Below, piece by piece: positions 16,197 through 16,846 of a stretch of 64,000 bases of DNA. Source of the DNA: Escherichia coli (GTDB lineage: Bacteria; Pseudomonadota; Gammaproteobacteria; Enterobacterales; Enterobacteriaceae); the NCBI RefSeq assembly GCF_003334405.1, contig NZ_QOWM01000003.1; one strand, 5' to 3'. The position numbers were made by a program, and so were the translations under genes. Each line of letters opens with the position of its first letter. Position 1 is the first letter of the stretch. Under the pieces are notes generated by a model that made no database searches, was not told where the DNA came from, and saw nothing but the letters and a program-made list of their open reading frames with translations.

Positions 16197-16388
16197 TTAA
16201 AAATCACCGTACTCCTGTGCAGGTCGCCAGAAACCATCTATAAAATCCTCAATCGGAAAACAACCGCCCTGGCGGATCCGTTGATCGCTCATAGAATAAA
16301 GACACTGCTGTTCCGTGTTGTAGACATCCACAACAATATCTTCACAACCGCCATCCAGGTAGCAAACAAAAAGTACCAGCGCGAACAT
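16197..16388 (-). CDS. yebW: Small protein YebW
   Basis: Track ORF 16197-16472 trimmed to MFALVLFVCYLDGGCEDIVVDVYNTEQQC... (63 aa). Confidence 0.75.
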   Translation of the reverse strand: MFALVLFVCYLDGGCEDIVVDVYNTEQQCLYSMSDQRIRQGGCFPIEDFIDGFWRPAQEYGDF

Positions 16389-16492
16389 TTCATCCCCGAA
16401 GTGTGGTGCCGTACCGTTAAGTTTAGGAGAGATTTTACAACGGGGGAATAACCAGGACAAATAACCCGCCATGCCGACGGGTTCTTTTTGGA

Positions 16493-16729
16493 TCAGGCAA
16501 GACGCATAATCCAGGCATCAGATTGTTGATCGTAACGGGTACGGTAAAGGACAGAGTGTTCGCCATTTAGCAGGGCAGGGATACTGGTTTCAGCATCCCA
16601 GGCATCCAGTTGCATACATAAATCGGGGTCAGATTTACAAGGAATGGTTAACGTTCGATCACCTGGCGATTCACCGTGTAATTCGCCGTCGTCGATTTCA
16701 AAAGCGCCTATGCGCACACTGGTTTTCAT
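16493..16729 (-). CDS. yebV: Small protein YebV
   Basis: Track ORF 16493-16744 trimmed to MKTSVRIGAFEIDDGELHGESPGD... (78 aa). Confidence 0.8.
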   Translation of the reverse strand: MKTSVRIGAFEIDDGELHGESPGDRTLTIPCKSDPDLCMQLDAWDAETSIPALLNGEHSVLYRTRYDQQSDAWIMRLA

Positions 16730-16846
16730 CTTCGTGCTCTCCATTTAGCTGCCGATTGTGGTACGACCAGTCCGATCGCACCATTTTTCAGCCTAGTTGA
16801 GGCAGCCGAATGTGCCAGTCAAAAAGTGCGCTTTTTTTGTGCGCTG

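Follow-up and report, generated by a model that had tools for sequence, protein, structure and literature searches.

The yebV and yebW genes beside pphA in Escherichia coli: two conserved, independently transcribed small-protein genes, one of them related to ydfD of the Qin prophage

Main finding

The two short genes that lie between rsmF and pphA in E. coli, yebV and yebW, were found to be two independently transcribed units, and YebW was found to share a protein family with YdfD, the lytic protein of the Qin prophage. From these results a tentative overall account was drawn up, which may hold but on which we would not insist: the genes are independent of one another, YebW would be a YdfD-like binder in attenuated form, under the control of the host and with IspG as its possible partner, and the abutting stop codons of yebW and pphA are a product of ancestral compaction. 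Apart from the kinship between YebW and YdfD, the locus is ordinary. Both genes are already annotated in E. coli, so the preliminary description of this DNA was accurate in what it observed, but the genes were already known.

Locus layout and gene boundaries

All coordinates refer to the window, that is, the whole 64,000-nucleotide stretch of E. coli DNA that was analysed. The plus strand carries yebZ and yebY, then the sdsR/ryeA small-RNA pair (15265–15409, located with Rfam) and, next, pphA (15540–16196), which was identified from the ORF list, the RefSeq annotation and a match to PHROG 246 (E 6.7e-88) and which codes for a Ser/Thr phosphatase resembling NinI of phage lambda. On the minus strand, rsmF (16847–18292, ORF list) is located upstream of yebV and yebW; letB is also encoded on this strand. 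Translation and the ORF list bore out the earlier statement that two short minus-strand ORFs of 63 and 78 amino acids follow rsmF: yebV (16493–16729, minus strand) codes for 78 residues beginning with MKTSVRIGAFEIDD, and yebW (16197–16388, minus strand) for the 63 residues MFALVLFVCYLDGGCEDIVVD...EYGDF. With cysteines at positions 9, 15, 29 and 43, YebW had rightly been called Cys-rich. The Rfam scan of positions 14500–17500 by E-value returned only SraC/RyeA and SdsR/RyeB and nothing within 16197–16744. YebW, YebV and PphA were all without a match to the PADLOC models of anti-phage defence, and neither YebW nor YebV was matched by an NCBIfam model.

The ORF list offers a longer alternative for each gene, and both were rejected. 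An 83-aa yebV ORF would begin at the ATG at 16744, which had been taken as the outer boundary of the gene pair. This ATG overlaps the Shine–Dalgarno sequence GGAGAG (16737–16742, minus strand; kept in 22 genera) and is absent as a conserved ATG in other genera; the real start of yebV is therefore at 16729 (78 aa), and the earlier boundary has to be corrected. A 91-aa yebW ORF would begin at the ATG at 16472, which sits in an indel-rich, poorly conserved part of the intergenic region. Orthologues in other genera begin with MFALVLF (all YebW orthologues) and with M(T/S)KTSV (YebV), and the Shine–Dalgarno sequence of yebW (16393–16397, minus strand), GGGGA here and GAGGA in most genera, is kept in the intergenic alignment.

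Conservation of the locus was assessed at two levels. Of 5426 complete E. coli genomes, 5425 contain a match of at least 95% identity to a 751-nt query covering both genes and their flanks. A scan with one genome per species gave 159 relatives, the best 80 loci of which were used, 79 of them being long enough to be judged; the order rsmF, yebV, yebW is kept in all 79, each from a different species. Phylogenetic distribution, which the preliminary description had named as a check, thus speaks for very strong conservation. The label "orphan" had to be given up, because both proteins match Pfam families (DUF1482 for YebW, DUF1480 for YebV) and are conserved across the Enterobacteriaceae and beyond. 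That neither has an assigned function is formally true, but the statement passes over a solved structure of a YebV orthologue and the RpoS control of yebV, and over a paralogue (YdfD) and a multicopy phenotype in the case of YebW.

Transcription of yebV and yebW

An intrinsic terminator of yebV was located between the two genes by the terminator scan (16459–16483, minus strand), as a hairpin running from 16483 to 16463 and followed by ATTT. The hairpin, AACCCGYC-loop-GRCGGGTT with ATTTAT after it, is present in 79/79 loci and shows compensatory change, one of its stem pairs being T-A, T.G or C-G. The primary yebV 3′ end determined by Term-seq, at position 1922050 of K-12, corresponds to position 16459 of the window (PMC7815308, supplement).

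A −10 element for yebW lies at 16420–16426 (minus strand) and consists here of the hexamer TAAACT (16425–16420) with C at −13 (TCCTAAACTTAA); the consensus across genera is TCCCCTACACTTA. In 75 of 80 loci the element fits the pattern CTA[CTA][AG][CA]T, and the base that precedes it is always C; 68 of these 75 have it 30–32 nt ahead of the ATG. In the window, transcription would be expected to start near 16412–16414. The promoter scan had also given the match TTGTCC-17-TAAAAT. This match was not accepted as the promoter of yebW, since only Escherichia has TAAAAT and the conserved CTACACT-type −10 element follows a few bases downstream. According to work from the Hengge laboratory, the σS-selective −10 element is said to be KCTAYRCTTAA, with C at −13, and by its resemblance to this consensus the yebW element looks σS-like. 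The gene is absent from the published RpoS gene lists that were consulted, and RpoS dependence of yebW was not found in the accessible literature. In one strain, IS1203 is inserted between yebV and yebW, and both genes are intact there.

The terminator, the mapped 3′ end, and the −10 element and Shine–Dalgarno sequence that yebW has of its own together establish yebV and yebW as two independently transcribed units and not as an operon.

Relationship of YebW to YdfD

YebW matches Pfam PF07358 (DUF1482) with an E-value of 5.7e-36 over residues 1–57 of the 57-position model, and it also matches PHROG 1092. YdfD of the Qin prophage (K-12, b1576), likewise 63 aa long, is a DUF1482 protein as well (E 4.3e-26), and RefSeq sometimes gives YebW the name "YdfD/YebW family protein". 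In BLASTP the two proteins share 22 of 58 aligned residues (38%, E 4e-12), with the core aligned free of gaps; counted from this alignment, 11 of 24 positions are identical in the N-terminal half and 11 of 34 in the rest. The family is small, since a search of 1.84 billion representative proteins with the DUF1482 profile yielded only 103 clusters at E≤0.001. A paper treating YebW and YdfD together was not found in the literature.

Phage and prophage members of the family are encoded in the early-left operon and not in the late lysis cassette; they follow the repressor and dicB there and precede exonuclease VIII and the integrase. Whereas ydfD belongs to such an operon (dicB-ydfD), yebW is located in the core chromosome at the rsmF locus, between yebV and pphA, in 79 species, and has its own promoter; this is a difference in context, not in homology. 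Both yebW and pphA have lambdoid relatives (PHROG 1092 and PHROG 246, respectively). A simple deletion remnant of a prophage was considered as the origin of the yebW–pphA pair and rejected, since in phages the corresponding genes have divergent, not convergent, transcription.

The published properties of YdfD are as follows (PMC8835842): on induction it lyses E. coli; it binds IspG through its N-terminal half, as observed in vitro and, by FRET, in vivo; lysis is rescued by overexpression of ispG or by HMBPP; trimming of even one residue at either end abolishes the activity; and co-expression of DicB blocks lysis. YebW resembles YdfD in its hydrophobic N-terminal strand and in one Cys pair, C29/C43, which corresponds to C32/C45 of YdfD. 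It differs in that its first residue corresponds to residue 4 of YdfD, so that the three N-terminal residues are missing, in that it keeps a second Cys pair, C9/C15, which is lost in Qin YdfD, and in its C-terminal tail, FIDGFWRPAQEYSDF, which is highly conserved and distinct from that of YdfD.

The two proteins also differ in their effect on the cell. In a multicopy-suppressor screen, a gene of this locus doubled the MICs of gentamicin, ceftriaxone and levofloxacin, and deleting it was without effect (PMC5857375); a corrigendum of 2022 states that the gene responsible is yebW and not yebV (PMC9676061). Clones with multicopy yebW remained viable and were enriched under antibiotics, which speaks against strong lysis by YebW at this dose; induced ydfD, in contrast, lyses the cells. 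The effect of multicopy yebW on the MICs is small, and it may stem from the protein, the DNA or the RNA. The concept of a tiny protein that binds one enzyme of envelope-precursor synthesis is shared with phiX174 E and MraY, Qbeta A2 and MurA, and LysM and MurJ (PMC8835842). These phage lysis proteins have no relation to YebW in sequence or fold, and YebW, unlike them, is host-encoded, vertically inherited and apparently non-lytic.

Predicted fold and cellular location of YebW

All YebW orthologues contain four cysteines, and C29 and C43 are invariant in an alignment of family members. When 121 family sequences covering the core were sorted by Cys pattern, 93 had all four, 21 lacked exactly the first two and 7 had other patterns. 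The four cysteines of YebW thus behave as two pairs, C9/C15 flanking the hairpin loop and C29/C43 joining the helix and the third strand of the model described below. Qin YdfD is among the sequences that lack the first two.

Structure prediction, the other check named beforehand that was carried out, was performed with AlphaFold2 on a 17-sequence alignment and gave a mean pLDDT of 80.6, with values of about 90 over residues 1–40. The model contains strands at residues 2–9, 15–23 and 41–45 and a helix at residues 26–35, and the conserved tail is disordered; the predicted fold is a small β-β-α-β domain. An independently predicted model of a phage DUF1482 protein agrees with it (TM 0.61/0.67). 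A Foldseek search of the YebW model against viral models gave no match at E≤0.001; its output consisted of one DUF1482 model and of small phage proteins that are uncharacterised. A search of the PDB with the DUF1482 profile gave no relative.

The N-terminus of YebW is hydrophobic, and its score on the Kyte–Doolittle scale (19-residue window) is 1.71, that of YdfD being 2.00; both values are borderline for a membrane segment. They lend some weight to a different view of the protein, in which YebW resides in the envelope, is anchored or exported by its N-terminus and carries periplasmic disulfides, and in which the increase in MIC arises from NlpE-like envelope stress and not from IspG. Two conserved Cys pairs would be more at home in an oxidising compartment than in the cytoplasm, so the pairwise conservation of the cysteines counts against a cytoplasmic YebW, and in 2016 Masuda et al. 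reportedly proposed that YdfD is membrane-associated, which also favours an envelope location. UniRef entries of the family bear the name "Secreted protein", and nlpE was recovered from the same multicopy screen with an overlapping MIC profile (PMC5857375).

Several observations argue against this view. The uncharged run extends over just 11 residues, with D12, E16 and D17 after it; the N-terminus is free of K and R, and the sequence shows neither a lipobox nor an AXA-type cleavage site. K or R near the N-terminus occurs in only 4 of 67 family members, the net charge being about −7 in the family and −8 in YebW. AlphaFold2 places residues 2–9 as a core β strand (pLDDT about 90), and the hydrophobic N-terminus is therefore modelled otherwise than as a membrane helix, in which the phage DUF1482 model concurs. 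The binding of YdfD to IspG, a cytoplasmic enzyme, points in the same direction. On balance an envelope protein is considered unlikely, although it is the rival that has to be taken most seriously.

Proposed action of YebW

In the preferred reading, YebW would be a small acidic cytoplasmic protein, perhaps attached at the membrane surface, with a core of hairpin, helix and strand that would be held together by the two Cys pairs and with a flexible tail at the C-terminus that is conserved (FIDGFWRPA). Its action, as with YdfD, would consist in binding to a protein of the host. In YdfD the N-terminal half is the one responsible for IspG binding, and it is also the half best kept in YebW; IspG, the [4Fe-4S] enzyme of the MEP isoprenoid pathway, is inferred to be the most plausible target. 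YebW probably acts in an attenuated manner, because it is without the N-terminal residues and the tail of YdfD, both of which are needed for lysis, and because it is tolerated in multicopy (PMC5857375, PMC9676061). The host would express YebW under stationary-phase or stress control, so that the pathway would be damped and the cell not lysed. Decreased synthesis of isoprenoids and quinones might then reduce the membrane potential and slow growth. Aminoglycoside uptake relies on the membrane potential and on respiratory quinones, and mild inhibition of the MEP pathway would for this reason fit the twofold multidrug increase in MIC.

Taken by itself, the binding of YebW to IspG is doubtful, being proposed by analogy with YdfD: at 38% identity the two proteins may have different targets, and the tail that YdfD requires is different in YebW. 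Less probable again is a more specific scenario, in which the host possesses, as YebW, its own copy, domesticated or ancestral, of a takeover protein of lambdoid phages, one that still docks on IspG but does not kill. It would then tune the supply of isoprenoids, quinones and undecaprenyl phosphate in stationary phase or, alternatively, block the YdfD site of IspG and thereby shield the cell from YdfD-type proteins of prophages, whether resident or newly arriving, and the two Cys pairs might render the binding of IspG redox-sensitive.

Abutting stop codons of pphA and yebW

The stop codons of the convergent genes pphA and yebW abut at 16194–16199 (TAA of pphA at 16194–16196; TTA, as read on the plus strand, of yebW at 16197–16199), and the zero spacer that had been described is thereby confirmed. 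Stop spacing was determined in the 64 loci, the window included, that have a convergent pphA-like ORF. The spacing is 0 nt in 43 of them, and in a further 16 it falls between −4 and +5 nt, as a 4-nt overlap (3 loci) or as a gap of 1–5 nt (13 loci). One locus has a spacer of 14 nt and two, from Salmonella, have 27–28 nt; in the remaining two the distance is larger, as the pphA ORF ends early.

This tight spacing might be functional in itself, the pphA and yebW transcripts overlapping at their 3′ ends, so that transcription of one gene, for instance when pphA is induced by heat shock, would silence the other through antisense pairing or polymerase collision. Such a role would be in keeping with the frequency of abutting stops and with the results on termination: a conserved intrinsic terminator was found neither for yebW inside pphA nor for pphA before the yebV hairpin, and Term-seq shows no defined 3′ end for either gene (PMC7815308, supplement). 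On its other side the yebV hairpin does have an A-tract, which in E. coli and in 27 further loci gives CTTTTT when read in the direction of pphA. The 5-A tract is present, however, in only 28 of 79 loci, and the T.G pairs of the hairpin hold only when it is read in the yebV sense; read in the opposite direction, that of pphA, they turn into C.A mismatches. Rho normally terminates untranslated read-through transcripts. The spacer drifts, moreover, as the gaps of 1–5, 14 and 27–28 nt demonstrate, and pphA is missing altogether from 14 loci in which yebW is unchanged. A functional overlap is accordingly judged to be quite improbable. The simplest reading of the abutting stops is an ancestral, slowly drifting compaction; some antisense overlap of the pphA and yebW 3′ ends is likely, though not of demonstrable function.

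YebV and its relation to YebW

YebV matches Pfam PF07351 (DUF1480; E 1.5e-42) and, over residues 2–78, chain A of PDB entry 8VVA (E 4.2e-43). The latter is the structure solved for Klebsiella pneumoniae KPN_02352, which is the same protein in another genus, with no substantive difference. It is a monomer that forms a six-stranded split β-barrel with one helix as a cap and a Cys–Cys bridge, and its fold resembles PilZ but is without the c-di-GMP motif; for E. coli YebV itself, crystallisation was unsuccessful in the hands of the same authors (PMC11809132). The Cys pair C31/C38 of YebV is invariant in 38 species and matches the pair of KPN_02352.

Expression of yebV depends strongly on RpoS in both E. 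coli O157 and Salmonella (PMC2907692, PMC5437024), and the gene falls into a cluster with genes of osmotic and acid stress (PMC2634741). YebV is one of a group of small RpoS-dependent enterobacterial proteins, with YodC, YodD, YccJ, YgdI and others, all of which have fewer than 100 aa, are restricted to Enterobacteria and are expressed monocistronically from promoters with σS-type −10 elements (PMC5437024). The alignment of the rsmF–yebV intergenic region contains a conserved −10-like element at 16790–16796 (minus strand), CTAGGCT here and CTACGCT in other genera, which is consistent with the published RpoS dependence. The yebV leader further contains the inverted repeat TGGTCGTACCA (16759–16769, minus strand), a candidate operator of the GntR type. 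It is conserved in 22/22 aligned loci, is near-invariant, with G or A at one position, and has a single exact copy in the window. YebV would accordingly be described as a separate RpoS-dependent split β-barrel protein.

YebV and YebW might still be partners, as a toxin–antidote-like module that mirrors DicB and YdfD, in which the upstream product cancels lysis. The genes are adjacent in 79/79 Enterobacteriaceae loci, at a distance of 93–129 nt (104 nt in the window), and DicB does stop lysis by YdfD on co-expression (PMC8835842). The parallel does not extend to the gene arrangement, since dicB and ydfD overlap by 4 nt, unlike yebV and yebW, which are separated by a terminator with a mapped 3′ end and by the promoter of yebW. 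Moreover, yebV is missing beside yebW in Lonsdalea, where yebW directly follows rsmF, and in Chania, where its context is unrelated. YebV and DicB gave no alignment. When YebV and YebW were modelled with AlphaFold2 as a fusion joined by a linker (38 species-paired rows), no sign of a complex was seen; the pTM was 0.45, and the pLDDT of the YebW core fell from about 90 to about 60–70. The two proteins are thus probably not partners, and a module of this kind is regarded as very improbable.

Coding evidence

Sequence comparison indicates that both genes are genuine and under strong purifying selection. YebW is 63 aa long in all 77 species scored. Relative to the window sequence, the median non-synonymous difference of yebW in these 77 species is 0.11 and the median synonymous difference 0.76 (saturated), and the median dN/dS, where it could be computed, is about 0.06. 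The entropy by codon position, 20/13/78 bits, displays the pattern of a coding sequence, with most of the variation in third positions. YebV is 78–99% identical across 79 species. In distant genera both proteins retain about 80–85% amino acid identity, as compared with about 72% for the flanking RsmF and about 50% for PphA; the values for Buttiauxella are 84% (YebV), 83% (YebW), 72% (RsmF) and 50% (PphA). Selection at the codon level implies that yebW is translated.

That the ORFs are chance or decaying frames without a protein product, for which it can be said only that direct evidence of YebW translation by proteomics or ribosome profiling was not found in the searchable literature, is refuted for practical purposes by the low dN/dS, saturated synonymous sites and fixed length of yebW, by the conserved Shine–Dalgarno sequences of both genes, and by the purification and crystallisation of YebV (PMC11809132) and its detection by LC-MS in Salmonella (PMC5437024).

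Implications

The reading of the locus is corrected in two respects: yebV and yebW are two transcription units and not an operon, and the antibiotic phenotype formerly ascribed to yebV belongs to yebW. For YebW, a characterised homologue that acts on IspG and a small susceptibility phenotype combine into a concrete hypothesis that is cheap to examine. If it is true, the MEP pathway would have in YebW a small-protein regulator encoded by the host, and the multicopy antibiotic phenotype would have a direct explanation. Such a brake on the MEP pathway would be of interest to those who study antibiotics directed at isoprenoid synthesis, tolerance to aminoglycosides, or how prophage genes become domesticated.

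Intergenic elements around yebV

The leader of yebV contains, roughly 30 nt ahead of the ATG, the inverted repeat TGGTCGTACCA (TGGT-N3-ACCA; 16759-16769, minus strand), which was found to be kept in all of the aligned loci (22/22), being near-invariant with G/A at one position. Its shape is that of operators of the GntR/PdhR/FadR type, which makes the repeat a candidate operator; no connection between PdhR and yebV was found in the literature. Further upstream, a conserved GCGCAC-A7-GCGCAC-T5-GACTGGC stretch (16800-16846, minus strand) follows directly 3' of the rsmF stop codon. 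This stretch forms a direct repeat rather than a hairpin; the terminator scan reported nothing terminator-like for rsmF in the rsmF-yebV spacer.

Variant loci and proteins in relatives

In E. coli OkiPb01689 (locus L085), IS1203 is located between yebV and yebW (2734-3947 of that locus), adjoining the terminator hairpin of yebV; both genes are intact despite the insertion. In Lonsdalea (locus L086, 4386-5249), rsmF is followed directly by yebW, without yebV, and a gene for a phage CI-type repressor takes the place of pphA as the convergent neighbour of yebW. Among the proteins P0093, P0097, P0001, and P0083, natural variants of YebW were observed that have either lost or doubled the segment between the two "GGC" motifs (one after C15, the other after C43), together with one YebV-YebW fusion ORF. 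These forms look like products of short-repeat slippage or recombination, or else like assembly artefacts.

The pphA side and phage relatives

PphA (15540-16196, plus strand) matched PHROG 246, the NinI-like (lambda) Ser/Thr phosphatases (E 6.7e-88), so that both convergent neighbours, yebW and pphA, have lambdoid-phage relatives. The pair was considered as a simple prophage remnant, which was rejected because the gene orientation does not fit. Between yebY and pphA, the overlapping small RNAs SraC/RyeA (minus strand, 175 bits) and SdsR/RyeB (plus strand, 114 bits) were located at 15265-15409. The distance from yebY to pphA is greater by several kb in many other species, or yebY is missing at the locus, which suggests insertions in the yebY-pphA region. 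A prophage site has been called "yebW" in a study of O157 (PMC10925052).

Attribution of the antibiotic phenotype

According to the abstract of a 2024 structure paper (PMC11809132), the DUF1480 family contributes to the antibiotic response; within that paper, the case for YebV is built on cited evidence, namely the sensitivities of Keio knockouts and a secretome obtained with polymyxin. A corrigendum from 2022 (PMC9676061) names yebW as the gene behind the multicopy resistance that had first been credited to yebV.
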